A stretch of 64,000 nucleotides of DNA from Promethearchaeota archaeon (GCA_048940925.1 JBHLOC010000025.1:1-64000), one strand, 5' to 3'. Shown: positions 17,758 through 45,158, counted from the stretch's first letter. The notes: a model not told the origin generated them from the sequence alone. Made by a program: numbers and translations.

Positions 17758-19317
17758 ATGGATAATGTTATTGTTCTAGATTTTGGAGGGCAATACTGTC
17801 ACTTAATAACTAGACGTATTAGAAACTTAGGTGTTTATGCTGAAATTTTACCTTTTAATACGGATTTAGACAGAATTAAGGAATTGATGCCTAACGCAAT
17901 AATTCTCTCGGGTGGTCCTGGTAGTGTTTATGAAGAAAATAGTCCAAATCTAGCTAAAGCATTTTTTCATTTTACCGTTGAACATAAAATCCCAGTCTTA
18001 GGGATTTGCTATGGCCATCATTTGATTATGCAAATGGAAGGAGGAAAGGTAGAGCCAAAAGAAAAAAAAGAATATGGTAAAGCAAATTTAGAAATAATAG
18101 AAAAGAGCGTATTATTCAATTCATTAGAAACAAATGAAATTGTATGGATGTCACATGGAGATCAGATTACAAAAGTAGCAGATGGATACAAAATTTATGC
18201 TAAAACGGAGACTTGTCCTATTGCTGCTTATGGAAATGAAGAAAGGATGCTATTTGGGGTTCAATTTCACCCTGAAGTAGTAAATACTCCAAAAGGAAAC
18301 ATAATACTATCTAATTTTATCTTTAAAATCGCTCAATGTAAAAAAGAATGGAAATTAGAAAACTGGATTGAGCGAACTATTGAAAGCATTAAAAATGAAA
18401 TAGGTCCAAATAATAGAGTAATCTTAGGACTAAGTGGAGGTGTGGATTCATCAGTTACAGCAGTTCTAATACATAAAGCAATTGGAGATAGACTTCATAG
18501 TATTTTTGTTAATAATGGTGTTTTGAGAAAAAATGAACACATTCAAGTTCAAGAGACTTTTAGAAATCGATTAAACTTTAAGAACTTTCATTATATTGAT
18601 GCTGAGGACTTATTTTTAGAAAGACTTAAGAATATTGAAGATCCTGAGGAAAAACGTCGTATTATTGGCCACACATTTATAGAAGTGTTTGAGAATAAGA
18701 CTGTAGAATTAGAAAAAGAATTCCCAGATATTAAGTATTTAGCTCAAGGTACTATATATCCTGATCGCGTGGAAACTAGTGCTACAAGTAATGCTTCTGC
18801 GAAAATTAAATCACACCATAACTTAACTCTCCCAGATAATATGAAGCTCGAAATTATCGAGCCTTTAAAGGATTTATATAAAGATGAAGTTAGAGAGATT
18901 GGATTGAAGGTAGGTATTCCAAAAGATATTATTATAAGACATCCATTCCCAGGACCAGGTTTGGCAGTTAGGATTATAGGTCCAATAGATAAGAATAAAC
19001 TTGATATAATACGAGAAGCTGATGAGATTTTAATCGAAGAAATAAATAATGCAGGTATATATGAAAACCTATGGCAAGCATTTTGTGTTTTTCTTCCACT
19101 AAAAACCGTAGGAATTATGGGAGATTACAGAACTTATGAGTATATGTGTGCTATTAGAGCAGTTGAATCAGTGGATGTAATGACTGCTAATTTCGCTAAA
19201 CTCAATATGGACTTATTAGAAAGAATTAGTACTCGAATTATCAATGAAGTCAAAGGAATTAATCGTGTCGTTTATGATATATCTAACAAACCCCCAAGTA
19301 CTATAGAATATGAATAA
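17758..19317 (+). CDS. guaA: GMP synthase (glutamine-hydrolysing), fused form
   Basis: LDFGGQY, GICYG, QFHPEV, LSGGVDSSV, HPFPGPGL, KPPSTIEYE. Confidence 0.97.
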   Translation: MDNVIVLDFGGQYCHLITRRIRNLGVYAEILPFNTDLDRIKELMPNAIILSGGPGSVYEENSPNLAKAFFHFTVEHKIPVLGICYGHHLIMQMEGGKVEPKEKKEYGKANLEIIEKSVLFNSLETNEIVWMSHGDQITKVADGYKIYAKTETCPIAAYGNEERMLFGVQFHPEVVNTPKGNIILSNFIFKIAQCKKEWKLENWIERTIESIKNEIGPNNRVILGLSGGVDSSVTAVLIHKAIGDRLHSIFVNNGVLRKNEHIQVQETFRNRLNFKNFHYIDAEDLFLERLKNIEDPEEKRRIIGHTFIEVFENKTVELEKEFPDIKYLAQGTIYPDRVETSATSNASAKIKSHHNLTLPDNMKLEIIEPLKDLYKDEVREIGLKVGIPKDIIIRHPFPGPGLAVRIIGPIDKNKLDIIREADEILIEEINNAGIYENLWQAFCVFLPLKTVGIMGDYRTYEYMCAIRAVESVDVMTANFAKLNMDLLERISTRIINEVKGINRVVYDISNKPPSTIEYE

Positions 19318-23302: not shown

Positions 23303-24136
23303 TTAAATTAGTTGACTACAGTAATTCATAGCAAAAGGTCTTTTAGAAATTGGTTTAATAGCTTTAAAAGGTTTTTTTCTAATAATTTCGAGGGAAATAT
23401 TGAATGTTTTACAGAAATCTTTTATATAAAAGTCGATTTCTTTCTGTTCTTCTTCTAAAAGTTCAGAAACTTGTGCCCCAACACCTAACCAACCTTCGAC
23501 ATTTTTATCCGTTCTAAGATAAATAACGCCTCTATGAATCCCTGTTCCTAATTCTGTTCCACAAATAGGCTGTTGATTCTCAATAATTGTGCCATTTGGT
23601 AAGAATTTTAGACCAAGCACAATAATTTTACCACCTGCCATATACTCGCCCAAGAAATCTTTAGCTGTGCCACCGATTATTAAAATAGGAAATTGATTTT
23701 TATATTCTTTCATATGGATACCAACTCTATAACCCACGTCTCCCTTGACATAGATTTTTCCACCTCTTGAAGATAATCCGATAACATCCCCTCCATCTCC
23801 ATAAATTATTAATGTTCCTTCATTCATTGTATTTCCTGTTTGATCCTCACAATTCCCAATAACACTAATTTTAGGACCATCCATAAAAATTCCTAAATCA
23901 TTACCTGGAACTCCATTAATAATTATTTCTACATTTCCTTGTAAAGCTGCACCTATAAATCTCTGCCCACAAACATTGTTTAATACAATATTTTTACAAT
24001 TATTTTTAACGGCATCATTGATCATAGAATTTAATTCTCTATAGTCAATTGGTTCTCCATTTGGGGCAGCATTTATCTCTAGAGGTTCTATTCTATCCAT
24101 TTCAAAATTTTTAACTTCAATATCATTCATTATCAT
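23303..24136 (-). CDS. gltB3: Glutamate synthase domain 3 subunit (GXGXG beta-helix, GltB3)
   Basis: GQRFIG, GNDLGIFMDG, GYRVGIHMK, FLGEYMAGG; start could also be 24154. Confidence 0.9.
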   Translation of the reverse strand: MIMNDIEVKNFEMDRIEPLEINAAPNGEPIDYRELNSMINDAVKNNCKNIVLNNVCGQRFIGAALQGNVEIIINGVPGNDLGIFMDGPKISVIGNCEDQTGNTMNEGTLIIYGDGGDVIGLSSRGGKIYVKGDVGYRVGIHMKEYKNQFPILIIGGTAKDFLGEYMAGGKIIVLGLKFLPNGTIIENQQPICGTELGTGIHRGVIYLRTDKNVEGWLGVGAQVSELLEEEQKEIDFYIKDFCKTFNISLEIIRKKPFKAIKPISKRPFAMNYCSQLI

Positions 24137-24140
24137 AGTT

Positions 24141-25661
24141 TTATTCACCAGCATGTTTTACTCCTAAAATATCCGCAATATGCGGATTTGGACCAATATA
24201 CCTTAATCGGTCTCTATTTGAGCGAAGAGATTCCACAGAATCTATTCCCATCGCTCCTAAAACTTCCTTTAATTCTTCATTCCAAGAATGAAATAAATTT
24301 ATGATTCTTTTTTTTGAAACATCAATATCTAATCTCTTCACTAAAATTTCTTGCTGTGTTGCGATACCCCATGAACAAAGACCTCTAAAGCATTGCTGGC
24401 AGACTCGACATCCCATTGCTATTAATACCGGTGTACAACACATAGCTATATCTGCCCCTAATGCAATAGCTTTGATCAAATCGGCAGAATATCTAATAGA
24501 GCCCCCAGCAATTAATGTTATCTCTTCTCTCAATCCTTCTTGCCTTAACTTTTCATCAACAACTGCAATGGCTATCTCAATAGGGATCCCTGCATGATCT
24601 CTAATAATTCTTGGCGCAGCACCAGTACCCCCTCTAAAACCATCAATTGTTAGGAAATCGGCACCACCTTTAACTATTCCTATCGCAATTGGGGCTGAAT
24701 TATGTACTGCCGCAATCTTTACTCCCACAGGAACCTTATATCTTGTTGCTTCTTTTAATGCTGCTATTAATTGAGCTAAATCCTCTATTGAATAAATATC
24801 ATGATGAGGATATGGAGATAATGCATCACTTCCCTGTGGAATCATACGCGTTTGCGAAATTAAATTGCTTACTTTTTCACCTGGGAGATGGCCACCGTGC
24901 CCAGGTTTTGCTCCTTGCCCTATTTTGATTTCTAGACCTGCTGCATTATGTAAATAATTAATATCCACACCAAATCTTCCTGATGCGACTTCAGTAATAA
25001 TATTTGGAGCATATTCATAAAAATCTGGATGTAGACCCCCTTCTCCTGAACCTGCTACAATATTTAATTCTTTTACTGCTTGATATATTGCTTGACATGC
25101 ATTGTAGCTAATTGACCCTAAAGACATATGACCAACCATAATTGGCATATCTATTTCAAAATTAGGAAAGAGATTTGTCTTTAATGAAATATCGTTAATA
25201 TCATCATAATCACCTGAAAAATTAAGCTGCTTTAACTTTCGTCCAAATATTATTTTAGTTTCTATTGTCTCTCTCAATGGATCAATACTAGGATTTGTGA
25301 CTTGGCAAGCGTCAAGAAGTAGGTCATCAAAGATGGATCTAATCGGTCTATCATTGCCCGTTGCTGAAAGTAAAACGCCTCCATTTCCTGATTGAGCCCA
25401 AATTATATTTCTAATTTTTCTAGTATAGTTACCATGTTGGGGTAAATAAGCATCATTTTGAACAATGCGTATCGCCTTTCCTGGGCACATAACTACACAT
25501 CTTTGGCACGCTACGCATTTATTGTCATCAGCAATTATTCGTTCTCCATTGAAATATAGTACTCCAAATGAACAATTATTTACACATCTTTTACATTTCT
25601 TACAATTCTCTTGATTAATATTTACTCTATAATAAGGGAGAATCTCATGTACTATAGCCAA
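24141..25661 (-). CDS. gltB2: Glutamate synthase domain 2 subunit (FMN-binding, N-terminal 2x[4Fe-4S]; GltB2)
   Basis: CKKCKRCVNNC/CVACQRCVVMCP, EIKIGQGAKPGHGGHLPGEKV, HHDIYSIEDL, CRVCQQC...C. Confidence 0.95.
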   Translation of the reverse strand: MAIVHEILPYYRVNINQENCKKCKRCVNNCSFGVLYFNGERIIADDNKCVACQRCVVMCPGKAIRIVQNDAYLPQHGNYTRKIRNIIWAQSGNGGVLLSATGNDRPIRSIFDDLLLDACQVTNPSIDPLRETIETKIIFGRKLKQLNFSGDYDDINDISLKTNLFPNFEIDMPIMVGHMSLGSISYNACQAIYQAVKELNIVAGSGEGGLHPDFYEYAPNIITEVASGRFGVDINYLHNAAGLEIKIGQGAKPGHGGHLPGEKVSNLISQTRMIPQGSDALSPYPHHDIYSIEDLAQLIAALKEATRYKVPVGVKIAAVHNSAPIAIGIVKGGADFLTIDGFRGGTGAAPRIIRDHAGIPIEIAIAVVDEKLRQEGLREEITLIAGGSIRYSADLIKAIALGADIAMCCTPVLIAMGCRVCQQCFRGLCSWGIATQQEILVKRLDIDVSKKRIINLFHSWNEELKEVLGAMGIDSVESLRSNRDRLRYIGPNPHIADILGVKHAGE

Positions 25662-25663
25662 TT

Positions 25664-26857
25664 TTATACCTCCATTTTAGATAAATTATGTTTTATCAAT
25701 GGTATTTCAAGACCATTTTTAATTAATCCTTTCCCCTGTTTAGCTATAACAACAGATCCACTCTTCGGATGCCAAATATCAAGCAAATCGAATTTATCGT
25801 CATCAAGCATCAACCTTCTAAAGGAGGATTCTTCACTGCTCATATACACAGTATTCTTATCTTCACTAATTCCAACTACTAAAGGCCGTAGTTTTTTTCT
25901 ATCAGATAATCCTATCATAGTAGGAATAGGATCTGAATAACCAACAACAATAGAAAACGGTCCATTCAACATAGCACTTCTATAAGTTGCTCTTATATTT
26001 TTGTATATTACTTGAGTTTTATTATCTAATTTTTCAATTTCTTCATATAATGGTGGTGCTAAAGCAATAGCAACGAGAGGTATTGGGATTTTATGTTTAC
26101 GGCATAATAAGTCAAACAGATACGCGATAACTTCTGTGTCAGTAAAAAGAGTACATTTATATCCAAACGAATCTAAGTACCTTTTATTTGTTCCATAGGA
26201 TGTTATCTCACCATTATGAACCACCGAACAATTTAATAGATTAAATGGATGTGCCCCGCCCCACCATCCAGGAGTATTTGTTGGAAATCTTGAATGTGCC
26301 AACCACATATACGCTTTATATTCTGAAATTTTATAAAAATCTGCAATTTCATATGACCAGCCATTACCTTTAAAAACACCCACATCTTTGCCAGATGACA
26401 TCACAAATGCATTTTCAATATTAGCATTGATAGCCATTACTATTTGGACTATTTTTTCATCGTTATCTTCGTTATTATAGTTTTCTGGATCAAAGAACAC
26501 TCTCCAGATTATCGGAGGATTGATCACCTCAGAATGCATCTTTGTTGGTATAGGCTCCGATTTGATTATTTTACCATTTTTTTCCAAATATTTTAGGGTA
26601 TTTGATTTTGCATTTTCATTGTCAAAAAGAAAATGAAATGCATAATAATTTTTATATTCAGGATAAATTCCGTATCCCGCAAAACCCGCACCAAGACCAT
26701 TTTCTCTCTCCTTCAAAATACATAACATTTCAATTACTTTATCCCCTGAAACTCTATTCCCATCAGTGTTTATAAAACCAGATATTCCACATCCATCAAA
26801 TACTCGCTGATTTCTATATTGTGCGGGTAAAGATGTATAATTTTCCCATCTCATCAC
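25664..26857 (-). CDS. gltB1: Glutamate synthase domain 1 subunit (class II glutamine amidotransferase, GltB1)
   Basis: Propeptide then CGISG, HSRFPTNT...GAHPF, VHNGEI, TDTEV, DRKKLRP. Confidence 0.93.
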   Translation of the reverse strand: MMRWENYTSLPAQYRNQRVFDGCGISGFINTDGNRVSGDKVIEMLCILKERENGLGAGFAGYGIYPEYKNYYAFHFLFDNENAKSNTLKYLEKNGKIIKSEPIPTKMHSEVINPPIIWRVFFDPENYNNEDNDEKIVQIVMAINANIENAFVMSSGKDVGVFKGNGWSYEIADFYKISEYKAYMWLAHSRFPTNTPGWWGGAHPFNLLNCSVVHNGEITSYGTNKRYLDSFGYKCTLFTDTEVIAYLFDLLCRKHKIPIPLVAIALAPPLYEEIEKLDNKTQVIYKNIRATYRSAMLNGPFSIVVGYSDPIPTMIGLSDRKKLRPLVVGISEDKNTVYMSSEESSFRRLMLDDDKFDLLDIWHPKSGSVVIAKQGKGLIKNGLEIPLIKHNLSKMEV

Positions 26858-26860
26858 TTT

Positions 26861-28219
26861 TCACTCTCTCATGTTTGAAGAATCCGGTTTTATGTTTTCA
26901 TTCTCTATAATATTAAATAGTTTTTTCAAATCTCCAACTTTAGGTTTATTAGTTTCTAACCCTACTCTATTACGGGCTGATTTTGATAATAAACCAATAA
27001 TTCCTTTCTGATAAAAGGAATAGAATTCACGTGCATATCCTTTTGTAGCATATCCTCGCTCTGTCGCGAGATTACGTAAAATTGAAAAAATTTCAATCAT
27101 ACCAACTCTCATAGGACAAAGCTCATAACATAAATAACAATCAAGACACAGCCAAATTGACTGATCAGATATGACCTCTTCAACTCTTCCTTCAAGGAGC
27201 TTATAGACAATTTCGCTTGGTCTGAATTCGGTCAATTTTGATATGATACAGTCATCGTCACATGCTCTACATGAATAACATTTGAATAAGAAATTAGGAT
27301 CGAAATATTTTCTTATTTCCCTATTTTTTGCTTTAATATCTTCAATTTTTTTAAAAAGTGATTTGACTTGCGTTCTGTGGTACTTTTTCATCAATTCTCG
27401 AATATTAATCTCTAGGGCAATACATAATAATTCTGAATAATATAACACGGGAATATCGTAATTACGATCTTCTTTTTTTAAATCTTGTTGCAAATGATCA
27501 AATTGAATAAAACACTGAGGACAACACACAACAATACAATCAATCTTATTCTCCTTCATACTTAATAATTTCGCATTAATTATTTCTAATGATAAATTTG
27601 GACTCCCAGCTCTCCCAAGACTTCCTCCACAACATTCCATTTTAAATTCATAATCAATACTTTGAGCACCTAAATCTCTAATCAAATCATCAAATAAAGT
27701 TGGCTCAAGTGGATCATCAGTCTGTACTTTATTGCTTGGTCTAAGGAAGTGACAACCATAAAAAACCGCAATCCTTAACCCCGTTAATGGAAACTTTAAA
27801 TTATCTTTTATCGTCTCCCTTCTGAATTTGAAAACGAATTCGACCAAATGATAAATGTTACAATCTCCACGGACTTTAAGATCAATTTTATCCAAATATT
27901 CATTGATCTTCTCTTTTAAATGATGATCTTCTTCAATTTCACCTTTCACTTTTTTGAAGGTTGTAAAACACCCATTACAAGGAGTTAAAATAGCTTTATT
28001 CTCCATCTCAGCAAGACTAAGATTTCGAGCTGCCGTTAAATAGAACAACAATTTATTAGAATTTTTAATCCCATTCGGCTCAGGACAACAAGAAAACTTT
28101 GAATTTTCAGTAAAAGCAATCCCTAAATAATCTAATACATTTCTTATTGAAACTTCTATAAAAGGAAGCCGATATGTTATAGTGCATCCTGGGAATAAGA
28201 CTATCTCATGATTAATTAT
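26861..28219 (-). CDS. Heterodisulfide reductase HdrB-HdrC fusion; N-terminus extends beyond the ORF-track start, apparent ATA/ATT start
   Basis: Frame upstream of 28051 reads IINHEIVLFPGCTITYRLP...FSCCPEP (first CCG domain). Second CCG domain FYGCH/ECCGG/CCPQC; HdrC clusters CYSCRACDDDC and CLDCYLCYELCP. Confidence 0.88.
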   Translation of the reverse strand: MINHEIVLFPGCTITYRLPFIEVSIRNVLDYLGIAFTENSKFSCCPEPNGIKNSNKLLFYLTAARNLSLAEMENKAILTPCNGCFTTFKKVKGEIEEDHHLKEKINEYLDKIDLKVRGDCNIYHLVEFVFKFRRETIKDNLKFPLTGLRIAVFYGCHFLRPSNKVQTDDPLEPTLFDDLIRDLGAQSIDYEFKMECCGGSLGRAGSPNLSLEIINAKLLSMKENKIDCIVVCCPQCFIQFDHLQQDLKKEDRNYDIPVLYYSELLCIALEINIRELMKKYHRTQVKSLFKKIEDIKAKNREIRKYFDPNFLFKCYSCRACDDDCIISKLTEFRPSEIVYKLLEGRVEEVISDQSIWLCLDCYLCYELCPMRVGMIEIFSILRNLATERGYATKGYAREFYSFYQKGIIGLLSKSARNRVGLETNKPKVGDLKKLFNIIENENIKPDSSNMRE

Positions 28220-28409: not shown

Positions 28410-28919
28410 TTATTCGTAGATAAGAAGCTTTTTCGTCCTATCCATTTTTTGATTATTATTTACAGCTGAAAATACATATGATTCATATTCATTTTTCTTG
28501 AGTTTTTCTAAATGGGATCCTTCTAAAATTAATTCATGACTATCTAATTCTGATACGAATAAGTCCATACACGCAATTCCAGTATCACAATTCCAATTAG
28601 GTTCTTTATGTTTCGGCCCAAAAATCCTTCCAAACGGTATTGAACTATGTTCGCATATATGGATAATATTCCTGCCATAAGAATATTCCTCTCCACATTC
28701 TGGACATTCGATCATTTTTGAAATTAATTTGCTTCTTTGGTCTAGATTACTTCCAAATGCAAAATAATTAACTTCTAGAAAGTTATCGCACCTCCATTTA
28801 TAGTCATATCTTTCATCTTTGGAGCTCAATCCGCTTTTATTGGCAATTTCTTCACAATCTTGGCATATTTTTCTGTCGTAGTAAATCTTTTTTCCACAAA
28901 ATTGACATTTCAATGACAT
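28410..28919 (-). CDS. Zinc-finger protein (two Cys-rich modules), C-terminal LIYE; paralog of 32940..33341
   Basis: CQFC...CQDC and CPEC...HIC modules, each followed by WxCD. Confidence 0.8.
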   Translation of the reverse strand: MSLKCQFCGKKIYYDRKICQDCEEIANKSGLSSKDERYDYKWRCDNFLEVNYFAFGSNLDQRSKLISKMIECPECGEEYSYGRNIIHICEHSSIPFGRIFGPKHKEPNWNCDTGIACMDLFVSELDSHELILEGSHLEKLKKNEYESYVFSAVNNNQKMDRTKKLLIYE

Positions 28920-28939
28920 TTTTATTCAATTCTCCAAAT

Positions 28940-29206
28940 TTAGATTGCTTTGTATAGACGTGGGCGTTTATTATAATATATCTCGAGTTTTTCAGGCATT
29001 TTTCTCTTAATTCTGTTTATAACATGCACAACTCCATTTCTGTTATGCCCATATCCCATAGCAGCTGCCCACTCCGCTGCTGTTGAAACTCCAATCTCCT
29101 TTAGTTTATCCAAGCATATCTCTTCCCACGTTTTTAGTACTATTTGATTCTCTATTTTTATCACTCCATACTTTTTATTAACAATTTTAAGTGCATTTCT
29201 AATCAA
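28940..29206 (-). CDS. Small winged-HTH protein, putative regulator
   Basis: WEEICLDKLKEIGVSTAAEWAAAMGY...VVHVINRI...RPRLYK fits a wHTH pattern; 20 bp from the zinc-finger gene; true start may be further downstream. Confidence 0.7.
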   Translation of the reverse strand: MIRNALKIVNKKYGVIKIENQIVLKTWEEICLDKLKEIGVSTAAEWAAAMGYGHNRNGVVHVINRIKRKMPEKLEIYYNKRPRLYKAI

Positions 29207-29213
29207 AATAATG

Positions 29214-29231
29214 ATGGGAATCAGATCCCAT
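29214..29231. promoter_or_regulatory. Perfect palindromic operator ATGGGA-N6-TCCCAT directly upstream of the wHTH gene
   Basis: ATGGGAATCAGATCCCAT, about 30 bp downstream of a minus-strand TATA-like CTTTATTAA (29269-29261). Confidence 0.7.
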
Positions 29232-29648
29232 TATATTATATAATAAGATAAACAAGCTCCTTAATAAAGTTTAGGATTAAAAACTAAACATTATTGCATT
29301 ATTTAGCAAATTTTCTTAAATAGATCGACAAAATTATATTCATCTCTAAATAAAAAATTATAAAAAAAAATGATTAATCTGAATAATGTTCATTCTAAAA
29401 ATATCTTTAATTTAAATTTTATGGAAATACTCTAAAAAAATTTCAATAAACGGAGGTTTTTATTTAATTCCTTTTAGTGGAGTAATAAACCTAAAAATTT
29501 TTAGTTTTTTGAAAAATAATTCTAAAGTTATCATGACCTAATGATTTCATGAATTAAAATTTCCAAGTTTATGCTTTTGAGAGCAATATTGCATTTTTAA
29601 TAAAAACAAATTGAAAATAACAACCATTCAACAAATCAAATCGTCAAT

Positions 29649-29683
29649 TGATATTATAAAACAATCTGATATTATAAAACAAT
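29649..29683. repeat. 17-bp tandem direct repeat
   Basis: TGATATTATAAAACAAT at 29649-29665 and 29667-29683. Confidence 0.8.
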
Positions 29684-29811
29684 ACAAACGAAAAATAAAG
29701 AATTAAATATCAAAGTATCAAATTTGGGTTAAATACGTCTATTTCTACTGAATTTTAATATCGATATTACAGAAATAGAAAAAAAATAACTTAATAAAGG
29801 ATCAAAAGATT

Positions 29812-30843
29812 ATGAGTCTTCTCAAATACATTATTAGAAGAGTGGTTGTTATGATTCCAGTATTATTCGGAGTATTGACTTTAACATTTATTCTTAATAG
29901 ATTAATGCCAGGGGATCCGATTGCTGCTCGATTATCTGCTGCGGGAATACATAATCCCGCACAGGGTCTTTATCAACAGATGAAGTGTCAGCTTGGTCTC
30001 TGTGATCCAATAATAGTTCAATATTTTCGATATGTAGAGGAATTATTCACAGGTCAATGGGGAGTTTCTGTATCTATTGTTCGAAATGAACCTGTCTGGG
30101 ATCTCATAATGGAAAGAATGCCATTGACAATAGATTTAACAGTATTTTCTGTGGCAATATCGTCCTTTTTAGGAATTAAGGCAGGAGTTATTTCAGCTGT
30201 TAATAGGAATAAAACTATTGATACAGTAGTGAGAGGACTTGCTTTATTAGGTGTAGCTATTCCTGTATTTTTTCTAGGAATGTTATTACAATACACATTC
30301 GGTTATGTTGTAAAAATCTTCGAGCCTACAGGATATTTGAGTATTAACATTGAAAATCCCCCATTTGTGACCGGATTTATTATAATCGATGCTATATTAG
30401 CAGGTCAGTTTTATGTTGTTATCGATTATCTATGGCATTTATGTTTACCTGTGTTTTGTCTGTCATTTATTAGTCTCGCCACTATTACACGTCAGACTCG
30501 TTCGAGCATGTTAGAAGTGTTAGAGATGGATTATGTCAGAACTGCAAGAGCAAAAGGATGTGAAGAAAAAGTAGTAATCCATTCTCATACCTTGAGAAAC
30601 GCTTTAATTCCGACTGTGACTATTATAGGATTAAGTATAGCTGGTTTATTAGGAGGAGCTGTTCTTACAGAAACTACTTTTGGATTAAATGGAATGGGGA
30701 ATCTTTTTGTTAATGCGATTCTCTTATATGACTATTGGGTGTTAAATGCCCTTGTATTTATGATAACAATCATTTTCATATTTGCAACTTTGCTAACTGA
30801 TGTAATATACGCAATTTTAGACCCCAGAATACGATACAGATAA
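29812..30843 (+). CDS. dppB: Peptide ABC transporter permease (DppB/OppB), stand-alone
   Basis: MPGDP, RSSMLEVLEMDYVRTARAKG (EAA loop), LDPRIR. Confidence 0.92.
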   Translation: MSLLKYIIRRVVVMIPVLFGVLTLTFILNRLMPGDPIAARLSAAGIHNPAQGLYQQMKCQLGLCDPIIVQYFRYVEELFTGQWGVSVSIVRNEPVWDLIMERMPLTIDLTVFSVAISSFLGIKAGVISAVNRNKTIDTVVRGLALLGVAIPVFFLGMLLQYTFGYVVKIFEPTGYLSINIENPPFVTGFIIIDAILAGQFYVVIDYLWHLCLPVFCLSFISLATITRQTRSSMLEVLEMDYVRTARAKGCEEKVVIHSHTLRNALIPTVTIIGLSIAGLLGGAVLTETTFGLNGMGNLFVNAILLYDYWVLNALVFMITIIFIFATLLTDVIYAILDPRIRYR

Positions 30844-30929
30844 TGGTTTTTATTCACAAAAAGAGATATTTTTTACCTTCTCATCTTATTTACATTCTGC
30901 TATATCAAATTAATTATTTGTAGAAAATT

Positions 30930-31148
30930 ATTAATTAAATCATTTCAATTAACTGCAATAATTGTTAGATCAAATCCATCAGGCAAGTCGAATGTATCTT
31001 AATAGCATTTAATCTCTAGTATTTCCAAGCTTCCTCTTGACACAAAATATTAGTTTCCACTAAAGCCTCAATTGACTAAACCGAAAAGTTGTCATTTCCT
31101 TTTGGCAGAAGCACCAATAAAAGCAATAGATTTAGGGTAAAAAATTTC
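30930..31148 (-). pseudogene. Remnant of the CoA-binding domain of an ADP-forming acyl-CoA ligase
   Basis: EIFYPKSIAFIGASAKRK*...GFSGN*YFV...EILEIKCY*DTFDLPDGFDLTIIAV with multiple stops. Confidence 0.75.
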
Positions 31149-31261
31149 TCAAAATAATTAATCTGCTTCACAGATGGAATAGATAATTTTGTAACTTAAA
31201 TTTAACCCATCTTTATGATTGATTAAATAAAAATATAAATTTTGCATCAAATGTATTAATT

Positions 31262-32119
31262 ATGCGTTCTGAGGACTATTATCAAGTTATTCAAGAAAAA
31301 GATTATTTAGTTATAATTAGGGAGCAACTTGACAAGATTGATTCTCGCTATCTCACTAAGTATACTAATCTCTTCTTGGTTATAGGAAATAAGGAGTGTT
31401 TATTAATAGATACCGGGTGTGGATTCTTTCCTCTCAAACCTATTATAAACAAATTTCTGAACGGTAAAAAATTATATGTGGTTAATACTCATTCCCATTT
31501 TGATCATGTGGGAGGAAATGGTGAATTTGATACGATTTATATCCACGAAAATGAGGAAGCCTTCGTAAAAAATGAACTTGATTTAACTTTTCTTAAAGAA
31601 GCTCCAAATACTATAGTGAATCGCTTCAATAATACAAATTTGATTTTACCACCATCAAAAAAGATTATTCCTTTGAAAGGAGGTGAGATCTTCGAACTAG
31701 GAGGGATCGATGTTAGATGGATTCATAACGCAGGACATTCTACAGGTTCTATTTCTTTATACACAGATAAAGGAGAACTTTTTCCTGGTGATCTAGTGCA
31801 TTATGGTGCTATCCCACTTCCACCTAAGGATGATCTATCCTTTATAACAGAAAGTGTTGAAAAACTAATTAAATTATACGATGAAAAAAACATTAATGAA
31901 ATATATCCTTCCCATGAAGATTATGGTGTCTCTAAAGACATATTAACAGAATTATTGAGTCTTCTTAAAAACATCGATGATTTCTGGGAAAATCGGATAC
32001 CGAATAAATTTAATAATGCTTGGGAAATCGATATGGGCGGATTTCATCTAATGTTAAAGGTTGGAATAAAAGAACGTAAAGATTTCCGAACTAAAGTGAG
32101 ACTCTTAAAAGAGGAATAA
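31262..32119 (+). CDS. Metallo-beta-lactamase-fold hydrolase
   Basis: LIDTG, NTHSHFDHVGG, GHSTGS, GD, PSH. Confidence 0.9.
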   Translation: MRSEDYYQVIQEKDYLVIIREQLDKIDSRYLTKYTNLFLVIGNKECLLIDTGCGFFPLKPIINKFLNGKKLYVVNTHSHFDHVGGNGEFDTIYIHENEEAFVKNELDLTFLKEAPNTIVNRFNNTNLILPPSKKIIPLKGGEIFELGGIDVRWIHNAGHSTGSISLYTDKGELFPGDLVHYGAIPLPPKDDLSFITESVEKLIKLYDEKNINEIYPSHEDYGVSKDILTELLSLLKNIDDFWENRIPNKFNNAWEIDMGGFHLMLKVGIKERKDFRTKVRLLKEE

Positions 32120-32156
32120 AGTTTATAAAAAATTGAAGTTTTTCCAATAAGTATTT

Positions 32157-32660
32157 TTATGTATTATTTACTACTTTTTCTTTTTTTTTTAAAGCGGTAA
32201 AAGAACTAACTTCTTTAATGGTATTTAATACGAAATGAGTGTTGGTGTGCTCAACATATGGAGATTTATGAATATCCTTAATCATTTTACTTAATTCTTC
32301 TCGGGTTTTAAATCTCGCTAAAATAAGGGCATCATAAGTTCCTGTAATATCATACACACCAAAAACATTAGGGTTATCAGCAATCTTTTCTTCAACCTCA
32401 AACATTTTCCCCTTTGATATTGTTACCTCTATAATACCCATAATTTCATATCCTAACTTCTCAAAATTAATTTTAGCACCGTAATTTATGATAATACCTT
32501 TCTTTTCTAAATTCTCAACATGATTTTTAATTGTAACTGGTGATCCTACATCTAACTCTTTAGCAAGTTGGCGAAATGAAATTCTACTGTCTTCACTTAG
32601 TTTTTTTAGGATGTCAATATCTAAATCAGAAAAATCTTCATGGGTAGATTGCTGAGTCAT
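32157..32660 (-). CDS. Lrp/AsnC family transcriptional regulator
   Basis: LDIDILKKLSEDSRISFRQLAKEL HTH; ITGTYD ligand-binding domain. Confidence 0.93.
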   Translation of the reverse strand: MTQQSTHEDFSDLDIDILKKLSEDSRISFRQLAKELDVGSPVTIKNHVENLEKKGIIINYGAKINFEKLGYEIMGIIEVTISKGKMFEVEEKIADNPNVFGVYDITGTYDALILARFKTREELSKMIKDIHKSPYVEHTNTHFVLNTIKEVSSFTALKKKEKVVNNT

Positions 32661-32729
32661 AATAATAAAGAGTTATATATACATTATAAAAGTATGCAAT
32701 TGTCCATAGAAAAACTTAAGAATCGACCG

Positions 32730-32873
32730 AATGATCATTTTTTTCGACGACAAAAATTATCAAATTGTACGATCGATCACTTTATTTAAGTAATAATGAT
32801 CATTTATAACTGTTATTCTCCATTAATGTAAACATTTGAGCTAGAAAAAATTAAAATTTATATATGTACGATC
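32730..32873. promoter_or_regulatory. Array of short palindromes in the divergent lrp / zinc-finger-glnA intergenic region
   Basis: AATGATCATT at 32730 and 32795; TGTACGATC at 32766 and 32865; AATGTAAACATT at 32825; TATA-like TTTATATA at 32857. Confidence 0.5.
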
Positions 32874-32939
32874 ATATCATTAATTATATAATTAAAAATT
32901 AGTGAAAATTCCTCTAAGTATAAAAAAGAAGATTTAGAT

Positions 32940-33341
32940 ATGAAAAAAATGCCATTAAAATGCCCTATATGTGGAAAAAAATATTATTATGATAGTAAAA
33001 TTTGCCATGAATGCGAAGATTATTCAAAATATAGTGGTTTGACAAATCAAGATGAGTATTATGTTCAAAAATGGAATTCTGGTGTTTTTTTAGGATTTGA
33101 TTCCATAACATTTGGAAGACAAAAAGCAGATAATTTATATATTAAAATTGCTTCTGAACCAAAATTCACGAAATTCAAATCCAGGAAAGACTATAAATGG
33201 AACTGTGAGTCAAATGTTAGATTTAGGAATTATATTACTCAAAAAGATCATCTTTATCAATTAAATGCGCTTAAGCATTTAACTACTGAAAATTCAAGGT
33301 TTTTTGGAAGAGATACTAATAATTCATTGATTTATGAATAA
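32940..33341 (+). CDS. Zinc-finger protein, C-terminal LIYE; paralog of 28410..28919
   Basis: LKCPICGKKYYYDSKICHECE...SGL...KW...KWNCE...SLIYE. Confidence 0.8.
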   Translation: MKKMPLKCPICGKKYYYDSKICHECEDYSKYSGLTNQDEYYVQKWNSGVFLGFDSITFGRQKADNLYIKIASEPKFTKFKSRKDYKWNCESNVRFRNYITQKDHLYQLNALKHLTTENSRFFGRDTNNSLIYE

Positions 33342-33441
33342 ATTAATAAATAACATGATAAAAATGAATTATATTTTAATATTCAAATCTTCAAAATTAA
33401 GTGTAATAATATAATTTTAAAAAAAATAAAAAAGAATTATT

Positions 33442-34944
33442 ATGACAAGTACTAAAGAAAGTTTTGTAAAAGGGATTATAGAACCAAGTGTAAACGCTGT
33501 AGAAGCAGCTAAAAAGATCCTCGAAGCGGAACAAGTAAAGTTCGTGTTATGTGCTTTTACAGATGTTCGAGGTATTTTTCAGAGTTTTAGCTCTCCTGTT
33601 CATCATTTTTTAAAAGGAGATCAATATTTTGAAACGGGAATTGGTTTTGATGGGTCGAGTATACGAGGATTTAGAGAACTTCACACTAGTGATATGATTT
33701 TCTATCCTGATCCTCAAGCTTTATATATCCTTCCTTGGACGACCGGTTTTCAAAAAACTGCAGTTTTAATAGGAAATATACGTGAACCGTTCGGAAGTAT
33801 AGAAGCTGCTGACTGTGATCCTAGAGGATATGTAGCGCAGCGTGCCATAGATAAAGCTTCAGAATTGGGCTATACATCTTACTTTGGACCTGAAATTGAA
33901 TTTTTTGTTTTTAAGTCTATAGATCCAAGTAAGTTAGATTATGATATTTTTACCAGCCCAAAGGGAGGTGCAGGAGATAGTTGGGGCCCACCAAGAGTGA
34001 ATCCCGTATCTCCCGAAACCGAGATTGGGGGGTATATATTAAGACCTAAAGAAGCATACTTTAGGAATCCTCCTGAGGATACTACTAATGGTTATCGTAA
34101 CGATCTTACAAATACACTCGAAACAATGGGATATACCGTTGAGATGCATCACCATGAGGTCTCTACTAAAGGACAAGTTGAAATAAACTATCGTTATAGT
34201 GACCTATTGGACACTGCGGATAAAGTTCAGATTTACAAGCTTGCTGCACGAAATATTGCTGCTAAATATGGATGGATTGCAACATTTATGCCAAAACCAA
34301 TTTATTTAGATAATGCTAGTGGTATGCATGTTCATAATTCAATGTTCAAGGATGGTGAAAATGCTTTCTGGGATCCAGATGATGATTATGCTGAGATTAG
34401 TCAGGAATGTAGGTATTATATTGGTGGCCTTCTCGAACATGCTGAAGCATTAACGGCGATATGTTGCCCAACAGTCAATTCATATAAACGATTAGTTCCT
34501 GGATTCGAGGCTCCTATTAATATTATGTATAGTCGAAGAAATAGATCAGCATTAATCCGAATTCCAGTGTATTTAAAAGGTGAAAAATACAAAAATAGAA
34601 GACGTATAGAATATAGGGGAGTTGATCCCTCAACAAACTCTTACTTTGCTTTTGCGGCAATATTAACGGCAGGATTAGATGGAATTAAAAAGAAGATTGA
34701 TCCTGGTGACCCTGTAGATAAGGATGTTTATGAAATGTCTGAATCAGAGAAAAAGTCTGCTGGTGTGAAACAATTACCAACAACTCTAAAAGATGCATTG
34801 GACATTATGGAAACTGATTCAATATCAAAAGAAATTCTTGGATCTCATCTCTATGATGCCTTCGTAGAATACAAAACAAATGAATGGAATCAGTTTTGTC
34901 TTTATGTAACACCTTGGGAAATTATGAAATATTTAGACTACTAA
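33442..34944 (+). CDS. glnA: Glutamine synthetase type I
   Basis: FDGSSIRGF, GPEIEFF, HHEV..GQVEI, TFMPKP...SGMHVH, NSYKRLVPGFEAP, NRSALIRIP, IEYRGVD. Confidence 0.95.
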   Translation: MTSTKESFVKGIIEPSVNAVEAAKKILEAEQVKFVLCAFTDVRGIFQSFSSPVHHFLKGDQYFETGIGFDGSSIRGFRELHTSDMIFYPDPQALYILPWTTGFQKTAVLIGNIREPFGSIEAADCDPRGYVAQRAIDKASELGYTSYFGPEIEFFVFKSIDPSKLDYDIFTSPKGGAGDSWGPPRVNPVSPETEIGGYILRPKEAYFRNPPEDTTNGYRNDLTNTLETMGYTVEMHHHEVSTKGQVEINYRYSDLLDTADKVQIYKLAARNIAAKYGWIATFMPKPIYLDNASGMHVHNSMFKDGENAFWDPDDDYAEISQECRYYIGGLLEHAEALTAICCPTVNSYKRLVPGFEAPINIMYSRRNRSALIRIPVYLKGEKYKNRRRIEYRGVDPSTNSYFAFAAILTAGLDGIKKKIDPGDPVDKDVYEMSESEKKSAGVKQLPTTLKDALDIMETDSISKEILGSHLYDAFVEYKTNEWNQFCLYVTPWEIMKYLDY

Positions 34945-35324: not shown

Positions 35325-35912
35325 ATGAATGAATTAGAAAATAATCACACGATAAATGACAGGATAACTATTGCAATAGATGAGCAAACAAAACAAATAT
35401 TAAATCAGTTAAATAATCACTCGGAGAGTTCTCGATCTGAAACAATAAGAAAAGCAATTAAATTTTATCATAAATTTAAGAAAGTTTTTGATCAAAAAGA
35501 AAAGGGGGTATCTGCTCAGGTAAACACTTACTTAGAATTACTTTCTAATGGAGAACATATTATTTTAGATGTAGATCATTATCTAACATTTTTAAAATTT
35601 ATTGAAAATTCCCCGAATAAAGATCAGTTTGATGATTTCAATAAATCAATTGGTAGGGCTCATGCAGAAGAATTTTCTCATGATCTTAATATAACTACAG
35701 TCCAAAAAGTAGTAGAACGCCTTGAAGCATGCAATTTTTTCAAAATAATTAAAGATTCATCTAACAAATGTACCCTACTTTTAGGATCTGACATTCAAAA
35801 GAACTTTATTAAGACTTTTTTAGAAGAAGTCTTAAAAGGTATGGGTTTTAAAGTAAGTATTAACGAAGGATTTTCTAAATTAAAGATAATTATAGAGGAT
35901 TTTTCAATTTAG
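35325..35912 (+). CDS. CopG/ribbon-helix-helix regulator with C-terminal ligand-binding-like domain
   Basis: RITIAIDEQTKQILNQL...SRSETIRKAI RHH pattern. Confidence 0.8.
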   Translation: MNELENNHTINDRITIAIDEQTKQILNQLNNHSESSRSETIRKAIKFYHKFKKVFDQKEKGVSAQVNTYLELLSNGEHIILDVDHYLTFLKFIENSPNKDQFDDFNKSIGRAHAEEFSHDLNITTVQKVVERLEACNFFKIIKDSSNKCTLLLGSDIQKNFIKTFLEEVLKGMGFKVSINEGFSKLKIIIEDFSI

Positions 35913-38142: not shown

Positions 38143-39495
38143 ATGATTGAAAAAGACGATCCAAAAAGGAAAGAGATTTGTGATAAAGTAATAGAGAAGA
38201 TTAAAGAAGAGGATATAAAATTTATTTATCTTCAATTTACTGATATCCATGGAATTATTAAATCTTTTGAAATAAACTCCAAGAGGATTGAGGATATTTT
38301 TGAAGTAGGTGAGAATTTCGACGGGAGTTCTATAACGGGTTACGGAGCGATTGAAGAGAGTGATAAAGTTGCACTTCCTGATCCTAGCACATTTTATCTT
38401 TTGCCTTGGAGAAAAGAAAATAAGGTTGCAAGGGTAATTTGTGATATCTATAAACCTGATGGAAAACGGTATGAAGGAGACCCTCGCAGAATATTACAAA
38501 GAGCTGTCAATAAAGCAAAAGAACTAGGTTATGATTACTATTGTGCTCCAGAAATGGAGTTCTTCATATTAACCCCAGATACCGAAAAAGCATTTAAGCC
38601 CTCAGATATGAGAGGATATTTCGATTATGATCCATATGATGTTAACGAAATAATAAGGTATAGAATTGCAGAATATTGCGATGCAATGGGTATTTCTGCA
38701 GAGTGTGTACATCATGAAGTTGCATTTGGACAGCATGAGGTAGATTTCAGATATGATGAAGCAGTAAATACAGCAGATAACACAGTTACAATAAAAACGA
38801 TAGTTAAAACTGTCTCGGCGCAACATAATTTATTAGGAACATTTATGCCTAAACCTTTTGATGGGATTAATGGATCAGGCATGCATGTACATCAATCTTT
38901 ATGGAATAATGGGAATAATATCTTTTATGATGAAAATGATAAAGATCATATTTCGATTATCATGAAAAGATGGATTGCAGGTCAATTAAAACACGCTATC
39001 TCGATGTGTGCTGTTTTAAGTAGTTGGCCTAATTCTTATAAGAGATTAGTTCCTGGATTTGAGGCTCCAGTTTATCTTGCTTGGGGTTTTAGGAATAGAT
39101 CTCCTTTAATCAGGGTACCAGATTTTCATAATAAATCCACCGCAGCTAGATGTGAAATTCGTTGTCCAGATCCTGCTGGTAATCCTTATCTTCAATTTGC
39201 TGTTCTTCTCGCTTCAGGATTAGATGGGATTTTATCAGAGGAAATTGACATTCCTGAACCAACCGATAGAAATGTATATCATTTATCTTCAAAAGAAATG
39301 GAAAAAGAAGGTATTATTTCATTACCAGGGAGTCTTAGTGAAGCTTTAAAGTATTTTAGAGATTCAGAATTTATGAAGGAAGTTTTCGGAGAATTAGCAT
39401 TTAAAAACTACTATTATGCCAAATTGGAGGAATTTGATAAATACAGAGTCGTAGTGAGCGAATGGGAGAGAAATAGATATATAACTCATTTGTAG
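38143..39495 (+). CDS. glnA: Glutamine synthetase type I (second, shorter GSI-alpha-like copy)
   Basis: FDGSSITGY, APEMEFF, HHEVAFGQHEV, FMPKP..NGSGMHVH, NRSPLIRVP, CEIRCPD. Confidence 0.95.
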   Translation: MIEKDDPKRKEICDKVIEKIKEEDIKFIYLQFTDIHGIIKSFEINSKRIEDIFEVGENFDGSSITGYGAIEESDKVALPDPSTFYLLPWRKENKVARVICDIYKPDGKRYEGDPRRILQRAVNKAKELGYDYYCAPEMEFFILTPDTEKAFKPSDMRGYFDYDPYDVNEIIRYRIAEYCDAMGISAECVHHEVAFGQHEVDFRYDEAVNTADNTVTIKTIVKTVSAQHNLLGTFMPKPFDGINGSGMHVHQSLWNNGNNIFYDENDKDHISIIMKRWIAGQLKHAISMCAVLSSWPNSYKRLVPGFEAPVYLAWGFRNRSPLIRVPDFHNKSTAARCEIRCPDPAGNPYLQFAVLLASGLDGILSEEIDIPEPTDRNVYHLSSKEMEKEGIISLPGSLSEALKYFRDSEFMKEVFGELAFKNYYYAKLEEFDKYRVVVSEWERNRYITHL

Positions 39496-44102: not shown

Positions 44103-44354
44103 CTAGAATAAGTCTGGGTGCATTTTTTCGATATTTTCCATAGCTTCAGTAAATAAAGTCTGTAATATCATATTATCATAAACATAGATATTTTCTATTA
44201 TATAATCTAAAATGTCATTAGCTATTCTCTTATCTTTGTTAGTATAGTTTTCCATTTTAGATTTAAATAAGATATTAAATTCTTCTTTCAGCCAATCTAA
44301 TTCCCCTCTTAGATCTTCTTCTAAGATTTCATAATACTTAACGCTAATTTTCAT
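44103..44354 (-). CDS. Small helical hypothetical protein
   Basis: 83 aa; SD GAGGT upstream. Confidence 0.7.
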   Translation of the reverse strand: MKISVKYYEILEEDLRGELDWLKEEFNILFKSKMENYTNKDKRIANDILDYIIENIYVYDNMILQTLFTEAMENIEKMHPDLF

Positions 44355-44630
44355 AAATATACCTCAACCTTATAATCTTTTTATAAATCTCCTTTTCTGT
44401 TATATAAAATAAATTGAAAATGCTATAAATAATTTATAGAGACCAGTTTTTATATAACAAATCCCCATATCATCTAATAAGAATTAAAATAATTAAACCC
44501 CCAAAAATATCAATTTTGATAAGGTAATTTTTACAATAGAGTTCAATTTTAATATATAAGTTTTTAAAAAATGACGTTTAATTTGTGTTATCTTAAAGAA
44601 TTTATAAAAATAGAAGAGAGTTGAAAATAA

Positions 44631-45158
44631 ATGGGAGGTAAATGGATAGGTATTTTTCCTGTTATATGTGTAGTGTTATTGATTGTCTCTTTGTTTTTAC
44701 CAATAATGGGTTTAAGTATTTTTAGTTCTGGAGTCATAGATCCCGCTATAACTGGAAATATTATGCCTTTTGGAGGAGGATTATTGAATGAGCTTGACCC
44801 TTATGTTGCTACAGTTCCTGAAGCTGGTGAACTTCAAACAGCTTTTTTCTGGGTGGGAATTGTCTTTGCGGTTTTTTTTGGTCTTGATGCTTTATTCCTA
44901 TTTATTAATGGGATTAGAGTTATGACTGGAAGCAAAGAACTTAAAAAGGCAAGAAAAAGATGGTTGATGGGGGGTTTATCCAGGATTATCAGTCAAGTTA
45001 TATTAATCGCATTATTATTGTTTCTTATTCCAGATCTTATAGCTGATAATTACCCTGGAGTTGAATTGACTTTTACTATTGGGTTAGGAATGATTATGGT
45101 AATGGTTGTAGGTGGAGTTTTGATTTTCGCATGGATTCTTGCTAAAATTGCTGATTAA
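44631..45158 (+). CDS. Four-TM membrane protein, hypothetical
   Basis: Four hydrophobic helices. Confidence 0.75.
   Translation: MGGKWIGIFPVICVVLLIVSLFLPIMGLSIFSSGVIDPAITGNIMPFGGGLLNELDPYVATVPEAGELQTAFFWVGIVFAVFFGLDALFLFINGIRVMTGSKELKKARKRWLMGGLSRIISQVILIALLLFLIPDLIADNYPGVELTFTIGLGMIMVMVVGGVLIFAWILAKIAD

Follow-up and report, generated by a model that had tools for sequence, protein, structure and literature searches.

In Bacillus and other Firmicutes, the gene for GlnR lies directly upstream of glnA, the glutamine synthetase (GS) gene, and GlnR has a head that folds and binds DNA, joined by a disordered linker of >30 residues to a C-terminal tail that is conserved (PMC9249791). The GlnR tail binds the active site of feedback-inhibited GS of the GSI-alpha class, and the tail of TnrA binds at the same site (PMC9249791). 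Here we examine two small zinc-ribbon proteins, designated ZnR169 and ZnR133, that are encoded in a stretch of 64,000 nucleotides (nt) from a Promethearchaeota archaeon (GCA_048940925.1, JBHLOC010000025.1:1-64000; the window, below, is this whole stretch). The source genome is that of an Asgard archaeon (30% GC, 4.8 Mb, 90 contigs). ZnR133 is encoded beside a GS gene and ZnR169 beside genes for glutamate synthase (GOGAT), and the arrangement resembles that of GlnR/TnrA in several respects: a small gene lies directly upstream of glnA in the same orientation, the N-terminal head, which is predicted to fold, is joined through a long and flexible linker to a tail that is conserved at the extreme C terminus, GS and GOGAT operons are served by two paralogs whose tails are alike, and the usual partner enzyme is of the GSI-alpha class. 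However, the two systems share no sequence homology, and the partner GS of the archaeal proteins is without Arg62. Moreover, the ZnR head is a zinc ribbon and not a winged helix-turn-helix (HTH) domain of the MerR type, so that DNA binding would need a separate protein, either the small winged-helix-like protein that we designate wHTH88 or an Lrp regulator.

Other described proteins invite comparison as well. Brz of Halobacterium salinarum is a small CPxCG zinc finger protein encoded directly upstream of, and in the same orientation as, the gene that it controls (PMC2253796). The ZnR proteins are likewise small archaeal CPxCG proteins encoded upstream of glnA or gltB, but Brz is shorter, has neither a conserved C-terminal tail nor the WNC motifs described below, and belongs to another lineage and another regulon (bop). 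The hydrophobic-Tyr-X (HbYX) tails of PAN, Cdc48, and PbaB resemble the ends of the ZnR proteins, ~90% of which read hydrophobic residue, Tyr or Phe, X; unlike these activators, the ZnR proteins have a fixed Glu as the last residue and no AAA+ or PAC2-like body, and they are restricted to one lineage and to a setting of nitrogen assimilation operons. LysW/ArgW and Pup are also small proteins in which a C-terminal Glu is central; LysW, too, has a zinc ribbon, and Pup is disordered and is acted on by a ligase that derives from GS (PMC3511204). In the active site of PafA, a GS derivative, the C-terminal Glu of Pup sits at the position of glutamate in GS and is activated as a gamma-glutamyl phosphate (PMC3511204). 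The ZnR proteins are not homologous to LysW/ArgW or Pup, and they differ in their tails, their nonacidic isoelectric points (pI), and their housekeeping GS/GOGAT neighbors. Finally, sP26 and GlnK1 of Methanosarcina mazei, IF7/IF17 of cyanobacteria, and the PII-NtcA adaptor PipX are small, partly disordered, and dedicated to nitrogen control, as the ZnR proteins seem to be (PMC11957540), but they are unrelated in sequence, and none has a zinc ribbon, such a tail, or a duplication over GS and GOGAT.

An earlier note on the window had described the two open reading frames (ORFs) as paralogs ending in the same four residues, the longer one with a second zinc module, and all of these points hold (coordinates are given in Table 1). 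The N-terminal regions of ZnR169 and ZnR133 share 28/56 identities (50%; BLASTP, E 7e-17), and both translations end in LIYE. Residues 70 to 110 of ZnR169 also match the N terminus of ZnR133 (BLASTP, E 2e-5), which confirms the second zinc module. Motifs of the CPxCG type read CPICG in ZnR133 and CQFCG and CPECG in ZnR169. We used four alignments, of ZnR sequences (A1), the ZnR133 orthologs (A2), the ZnR169 orthologs (A3), and the wHTH88 family (A4). In A3, position 86 is variable, with Cys in most orthologs (KICHxC) and Ile in the source genome, and the adjacent His87 and Cys89 are nearly invariant. Because Ile86 replaces Cys while His87 and Cys89 are kept, the second ribbon is probably a C2HC site (C72, C75, H87, and C89). 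The sequence SEPK of ZnR133 aligns with CPEC of ZnR169, which indicates that ZnR133 has kept the second zinc module in degenerate form and that a protein with two modules was probably the ancestral state. As orthologs of ZnR133 begin with MSLKC or MPLKC, its start is probably the ATG at 32949. Invariant or nearly invariant throughout the family are the four ribbon Cys residues, one Lys residue, two W-N(-C) motifs, and the terminal Glu.

AlphaFold2 models made with the family alignments had mean predicted local distance difference test (pLDDT) scores of 58.7 and 42.3 for the two paralogs. In the models, residues 1 to 30, corresponding to the ribbon, exceeded a pLDDT of 80 and the rest fell below 60; in that of ZnR133, the ribbon was the only part above 80. 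With models of this quality, the fold argument is limited to a ribbon and a flexible remainder, and the predicted architecture is a small zinc knuckle followed by a flexible chain that bears short linear motifs and ends in a free tail.

No element of the family is more conserved than the tail. We pooled 126 unique sequences from all fetched loci and proteins, representing ~80 genomes, and found [YF]E at the C terminus of 105; the other 21 are fragments or members of a tail-less subtype. The last residue of the tailed sequences is Glu in 105/105. Position -2 is Tyr in 90 and Phe in 15, position -3 is Ile, Leu, Val, Met, Phe, or Ala in 95 and Lys (5), Arg (2), Ser (2), or Thr (1) in the rest, which include the GOGAT-linked orthologs ending in LKFE and LRFE, and position -4 is Leu in 89/105, giving the consensus L-x-[Y/F]-E. 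When all ORFs of at least 60 amino acids (aa) in the genome were scanned for a C-terminal [LIVMF][LIVMFAK][YF]E, 11 were found, among which the ZnR pair were the sole zinc-ribbon proteins; most of the other nine were shorter than 100 aa, with no other sign of being genes. The shared LIYE ends are thus not a product of chance, as the scan isolates the two zinc-ribbon ORFs and 105/126 relatives end in [YF]E. The possibility that the tail is a genome-wide docking signal was ruled out, since no other convincing gene in the genome bears it. Another aromatic-Glu end is present in the GMP synthase encoded by guaA (17758-19317), whose C terminus reads STIEYE, and guaA and pepF adjoin the cassette of wHTH88, ZnR, and Glu_synthase genes in many relatives; the GuaA end is probably a coincidence with the universal C terminus of that enzyme.

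The claim that the family is undescribed also stood. In Pfam and NCBIfam, the ZnR proteins gave only zinc-ribbon matches below threshold, the best Pfam scores being 19.8 and 18.3 bits for DZR/DZR_2 against gathering cutoffs of 27, and the head matched no HTH family in either collection. A profile search of the PDB with the family profile gave nothing meaningful beyond the generic zinc ribbon, Foldseek with the model gave no match with E <1, and a protein-atlas search gave generic zinc-ribbon matches at best. Among proteins of at least 241 aa, no longer fused forms were found. The family profile matched 59 clusters at E <= 0.001 among 1.84 billion representative proteins; a 1,650-aa match in this search (P0048) was discarded as a low-complexity repeat protein. 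Whole-genome searches covered 134 genomes of one Asgard family and 266 others of the phylum. The ZnR family was present in 79/134 genomes of the former, mostly in two genera (43/53 and 32/42), and in 0/266 of the latter. The family hidden Markov model undercounts, as more-diverged copies were found adjoining wHTH88 genes. One homolog in public data bears the label Thorarchaeota. A literature search found no paper on the family. Our results indicate that the ZnR proteins are an undescribed, lineage-specific family to which the nearest described systems are analogues, not relatives.

Association with nitrogen genes, which the earlier note had proposed from the two neighborhoods in the window, is kept in homologs. 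On the glnA side, we counted contexts in 30 loci of ZnR133-type genes. In 26 of them, the gene immediately precedes glnA and is read in the same direction, with spacers of ~30 to 100 nt; in 21 of the 30, an Lrp/AsnC gene is divergent on its other side. The GS that follows in these 26 loci is an ortholog of GS450 (77 to 91% identity). In the source genome, GS500, not GS450, follows ZnR133, at a distance of 100 nt. The spacer before GS500 and the one between ZnR and GS450 in a congener are ~80% identical, and because of this conservation GS500 appears to have taken the place of GS450 behind the same spacer. This looks like gene replacement or insertion of a block at the start codon. GS500 carries an insertion of ~32 aa, and GS450 is found 5 kb further on, after a ribbon-helix-helix gene, glnK, and amtB. 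An Rfam search of the ZnR133-glnA spacer for an RNA element gave no match. In close relatives without ZnR, Lrp is directly divergent from glnA, and from this gene order ZnR is best described as an accessory inserted between the regulator and the enzyme gene. In the divergent promoter region between Lrp and ZnR133 (32731-32880), the palindromes AATGATCATT and TGTACGATC each occur twice and are candidate Lrp sites.

On the GOGAT side, eight loci were fetched. The ZnR169-type orthologs are 165 to 174 aa long and begin 20 to 30 nt after wHTH88. The order wHTH88-ZnR169-hdrBC-gltB1-3, whose hdrBC-gltB part agrees with the neighbors of ZnR169 as first noted in the window, is found in five of the eight loci (four with an intact ZnR169 and one with a truncated copy); the remaining three show wHTH88 and then ZnR169 only. 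A shorter tailed subtype of 72 to 108 aa, with a ribbon of the module 2 kind, also follows a wHTH88-like gene and mostly precedes a 548-aa Glu_synthase (PF01645) protein or gltB1-3. In 13 further loci, tailed members of this subtype (97 to 108 aa) lie between a wHTH88-like gene and Glu_synthase/gltB1-3 on the same strand, or after gltB3. In the second genus, a tail-less 81-aa form follows wHTH88 in at least one hdrBC-gltB operon (L081), and ~7 more genomes of this genus have comparable short open frames immediately after their wHTH88 matches.

The wHTH88 protein itself is conserved (57% mean column identity in A4). It is encoded by 88/135 genomes of the lineage, and its gene keeps its place before Glu_synthase genes even where ZnR is lost. 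No Pfam family corresponds to it. Its conserved pattern and its look-alikes in the protein atlas (DUF7123, z-alpha, HTH_11, and DUF977, with scores of 0.88 to 0.90) suggest a winged helix, which we regard as a lead only. An hhalign comparison with the Lrp HTH gave the right register at a probability of 2.4%, which is not significant, and was not used as evidence. Upstream of wHTH88 lies the palindrome TGGGA-N6-TCCCA, whose exact form occurs once in the 4.8-Mb genome. When up to 3 mismatches are allowed in the 12 specified bases of ATGGGA-N6-TCCCAT, 41 of 42 distinct loci have the palindrome upstream of wHTH88 at a constant distance from it, while its N6 spacer is free to vary. Within the window, 4 sites with no more than 2 mismatches compare with 2.7 expected, and for this reason only the exact site and the conservation across genomes are counted here. 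This operator was also sought at ZnR133/glnA and was not found there. NrpR (PF01995) is absent from the genome, and the control genomes of M. jannaschii and M. acetivorans gave matches. These results support a dedicated local regulator at the palindrome. That regulator is probably wHTH88 itself, which would then bind DNA.

A third paralog joins the zinc-ribbon head to a transcription regulator directly. On another contig of the source genome (C85, ~44141-44722, minus strand; locus L049:2141-2722), a ribbon-WNC module of the type CPxCGEEYSLGRKIYHxC ... PWNC is in frame with a complete Lrp/AsnC protein, comprising HTH_24 and the ligand-binding domain. The fusion is tail-less and occurs in the source genome and three other genomes. 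This ties the zinc-ribbon head to HTH regulators, and the existence of both a tail-less subtype and a tail-less Lrp fusion shows that the zinc module works without the tail. In the source genome, the open frame of the fusion has no ATG, GTG, or TTG before the ribbon, and the relative in L050 starts with MVICPNCG. In four genomes, the fusion gene converges with a pair of genes for a histidine kinase and a response regulator. A link of the fusion paralog to nitrogen through a GltD-like neighbor was dropped, as that neighbor is not conserved in the 4.5- to 5-kb stretches from the three other genomes.

Nearly every family member examined adjoins, or is fused to, an HTH regulator. The interpretation that we favor, though tentatively and at a little below an even chance, is that the ZnR proteins are nitrogen-regulatory adaptors whose head works with HTH regulators and whose tail docks on a sensor enzyme. 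They would be accessory nitrogen control factors built into GS and GOGAT operons. The zinc-ribbon/WNC head would act with the HTH regulator encoded alongside, namely, Lrp for the glnA unit and wHTH88 with TGGGA-N6-TCCCA for the glutamate synthase units, and the free tail would fit into a pocket of the enzyme that acts as sensor, most likely GS, so that GS/GOGAT expression or activity would track the glutamine/glutamate state. This would be the GlnR/TnrA logic of Bacillus divided over two polypeptides. We infer the contact between head and regulator from the company that the head keeps: an Lrp fusion, an operon shared with wHTH88, or a divergent Lrp gene. Since the tail is identical in the GS-linked and GOGAT-linked paralogs, a single common receptor is suggested, as GS is for GlnR and TnrA. 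The predicted shape, with only the ribbon folded, fits a tail-docking factor. The earlier note had itself offered tail-docking enzyme regulators as its second option, which remains viable and is close to this proposal.

Several observations weigh against the adaptor model. The head has no detectable similarity to DNA-binding or regulator-binding domains in Pfam, NCBIfam, the PDB profile search, or Foldseek; the HTH character of wHTH88 is suggested by weak look-alikes; and the pI of family members ranges from 4.7 to 9.7, with no consistent charge of the kind expected for nucleic acid binding. The tail motif L-x-[YF]-E is unlike the GlnR motif XG(E/D)XSRF. In the D50 loop of GS450 (FDGSSITGYGAIEESD), every ortholog examined carries Ala or Ser in place of B. 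subtilis Arg62/M. mazei Arg66, the residue that contacts GlnR and mediates glutamine feedback. Because this residue is replaced in all GS450 orthologs, comparison of the sequences excludes a binding mode identical to that of GlnR, and enzymes of the GS450 type may lack the intrinsic Arg62/Arg66 feedback switch. The loop is the same whether or not a ZnR gene lies upstream of the GS450 ortholog, and no ZnR-dependent difference in GS was found there. In the source genome, moreover, ZnR133 precedes a GS of the GSI-beta type, whose insertion fills the side-pore site used by GlnR. Lastly, some close relatives keep Lrp beside glnA yet have no ZnR, which indicates that ZnR is dispensable.

An alternative that we consider unlikely, yet the most serious competitor, is that the ZnR proteins are purely posttranslational modulators that bind the neighboring GS or flavin mononucleotide protein of the Glu_synthase type, with the terminal Glu mimicking substrate or product. 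Presented with both carboxylates free, this Glu would fill a glutamate/2-oxoglutarate site in the manner of the IF7/IF17 and sP26 class, and bridging of GS and GOGAT would be possible. A glutamate-site ligand would need just such an invariant terminal Glu (105/105), although GS normally binds the free alpha-amino group, which is missing in a peptide-bonded Glu. Tailed members with a nameable downstream gene all adjoin GS or Glu_synthase-domain proteins and not amtB, glnK, or nadE, but one tail for two unrelated active sites is less economical than a common receptor. The body, disordered in the AlphaFold2 models, resembles those of other small enzyme regulators, and regulation of GS by small proteins, together with a proposed GS-GOGAT coupling, has been discussed for M. 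mazei (PMC11957540). What this explanation leaves unaccounted for is the pairing with HTH genes and the Lrp fusion; in addition, the tail-less GOGAT-linked subtype of the second genus shows that the head has a tail-independent function.

The earlier note had put foremost the possibility that LIYE is an HbYX tail and that the ZnR proteins are proteasome adaptors or activators. In this case, the tail would dock in the pockets of the 20S alpha ring to open the gate or to deliver GS/GOGAT, or, in a variant, the proteins would deliver themselves for rapid, ATP-independent turnover. We regard this as improbable, and it is disfavored relative to the nitrogen control adaptor. Formally, 95/105 tails match hydrophobic-[Y/F]-X, and PAN2 and one Cdc48 of the source genome also carry Phe at the Tyr position. 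However, X can be almost any residue in HbYX (PMC12352868), whereas here it is Glu in 105/105 tails, and none of the six native PAN/Cdc48 tails (RLYS, DLFV, RLFV, ELYR, DFYK, and GIYR) ends in Glu. Moreover, the Hb residue is replaced by K, R, S, or T in 10 of the 105 tails, and it is by filling the Hb pocket that HbYX activators open the gate (PMC12352868). The genome encodes PAN, Cdc48, and presumably a 20S proteasome, and a mostly disordered protein is plausible as a 20S substrate; nevertheless, Pfam, NCBIfam, and PDB fold searches revealed no ring-forming or known activator body (AAA+ ring or PAC2/PbaB fold), the ZnR proteins are confined to one archaeal family although the proteasome is universal, the strict linkage to HTH regulators is unexplained, and a tail-less subtype and a tail-less Lrp fusion exist. 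Thus, of the earlier interpretation, the undescribed, tail-conserved, and nitrogen-linked family stands, since neither loss of the tail in homologs nor a lack of association with nitrogen genes, two outcomes that the earlier note had named as refuting it, was observed; the proteasome/HbYX role is not supported and remains improbable.

Very improbable, finally, is a covalent role in which a GS-type carboxylate-amine ligase activates the gamma-carboxylate of the terminal Glu, as PafA does with Pup and LysX with LysW, so that the ZnR proteins become amidated, are ligated to an amine or lysine, carry a glutamate-derived intermediate, or serve as protein-bound glutamate/glutamine carriers or tags in the GS/GOGAT cycle. 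LysW likewise combines a zinc ribbon with an invariant C-terminal Glu, a small disordered protein with a C-terminal Glu beside the gene for a GS-fold ligase is the Pup/PafA layout, and the ZnR gene does lie 27 to 100 nt upstream of a GS gene. However, the partner GS450 is a canonical, highly conserved GSI-alpha enzyme that must be housekeeping because GS450 and GS500 are the only GS genes in the genome, the LysW model (NF041070) gives 12.3 bits against a cutoff of 75 over no more than a zinc knuckle of 12 residues, an EDWGE or GG[QE] tail is missing, the proteins lack an acidic pI (the GS-linked type has a median of 8.1), the family has no LysX/ArgX or PafA/Dop-like gene as a neighbor, and no ligase is encoded beside the GOGAT-linked paralogs.

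Nitrogen control in the Asgard archaea is essentially unstudied, and the source genome is without NrpR, the regulator known from methanogens. Returning to the nitrogen control adaptor, the parts described here suggest that this lineage built its own GS/GOGAT circuit from wHTH88 and a unique palindrome, Lrp regulators, and a zinc-ribbon family ending in L-x-[Y/F]-E. If the tail does dock on GS, an archaeal lineage would have invented independently the GlnR/TnrA principle of using the enzyme itself to sense nitrogen for its regulators, and the tail would provide a short peptide ligand for an archaeal GS. The parts of the circuit are small and expressible, and the question is therefore directly testable with peptides and purified proteins.

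Table 1. Features of the GOGAT and glnA units in the window
Feature	Position (nt)	Strand	Basis
hdrBC-like gene and split gltB (three genes), downstream of ZnR169	23303..28051	-	ORFs; Pfam CCG and Fer4 (396-aa protein); order conserved in relatives
ZnR169, GOGAT-linked two-module zinc-ribbon protein ending in LIYE, 169 aa	28410..28919	-	ORF and translation; ortholog loci
ZnR169 C-terminal tail LIYE	28413..28424	-	Translation, tail census, motif position
ZnR169 second WNC motif (residues 109-111)	28587..28595	-	W109, N110, and C111 invariant in A3
ZnR169 zinc module 2 (C72, C75, H87, C89; CPxCGxEYSYGRxIxHxC)	28653..28706	-	BLASTP second match; residues nearly invariant in A3
ZnR169 first W-R/N-C motif (residues 42-44)	28788..28796	-	Alignment A3 and motif position
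ZnR169 zinc ribbon 1 (C5, C8, C19, C22)	28854..28907	-	Motif position; Cys conserved in A1 and A3
wHTH88, small winged-helix-like protein, first gene of cassette	28940..29206 (conserved part 28943-29185)	-	A4 alignment
Palindromic candidate operator TGGGA-N6-TCCCA before wHTH88	29215..29230		Unique exact copy; cross-genome conservation
Lrp/AsnC regulator, divergent from ZnR133	32157..32660	-	Pfam AsnC_trans_reg 1.3e-14 and HTH_24
ZnR133, glnA-linked one-ribbon paralog ending in LIYE, 133 aa	32940..33341 (probable start 32949)	+	ORF and translation; 26/30 ortholog loci
ZnR133 zinc ribbon (C8, C11, C22, C25; CPxCG type)	32961..33014	+	Four Cys invariant in A2
ZnR133 first W-N motif, WNS here and WNC in most orthologs	33072..33080	+	W45 and N46 nearly invariant in A2
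ZnR133 putative degenerate second module, SEPK through second WNC	33153..33206	+	Alignments A1 and A2; motif position
ZnR133 C-terminal tail LIYE	33327..33338	+	Translation, tail census, motif position
Conserved ZnR133-glnA spacer	33342..33441	+	~80% identity over 85 nt to same-genus ZnR-glnA spacer
GS500, GSI-beta-type glutamine synthetase with insertion	33442..34944	+	Pfam Gln-synt_C 4.6e-125; full-length alignment to 1hto and 2gls
GS450, GSI-alpha glutamine synthetase	38143..39495	+	Pfam; best PDB matches M. mazei and B. subtilis GSI-alpha

Two further small proteins were observed at glnA loci. In a same-genus genome without ZnR133, a 180-aa Cys-rich protein (L057:236-778, plus strand) that starts with MSLKCYYHPERE and ends in IIKE is encoded beside the Lrp/glnA pair. 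In the window, a 195-aa ribbon-helix-helix (CopG-type) protein is encoded after glnA (35325-35912, plus strand), as it is on the contig labeled Thorarchaeota (L010), and it is another conserved small regulator of the cluster.

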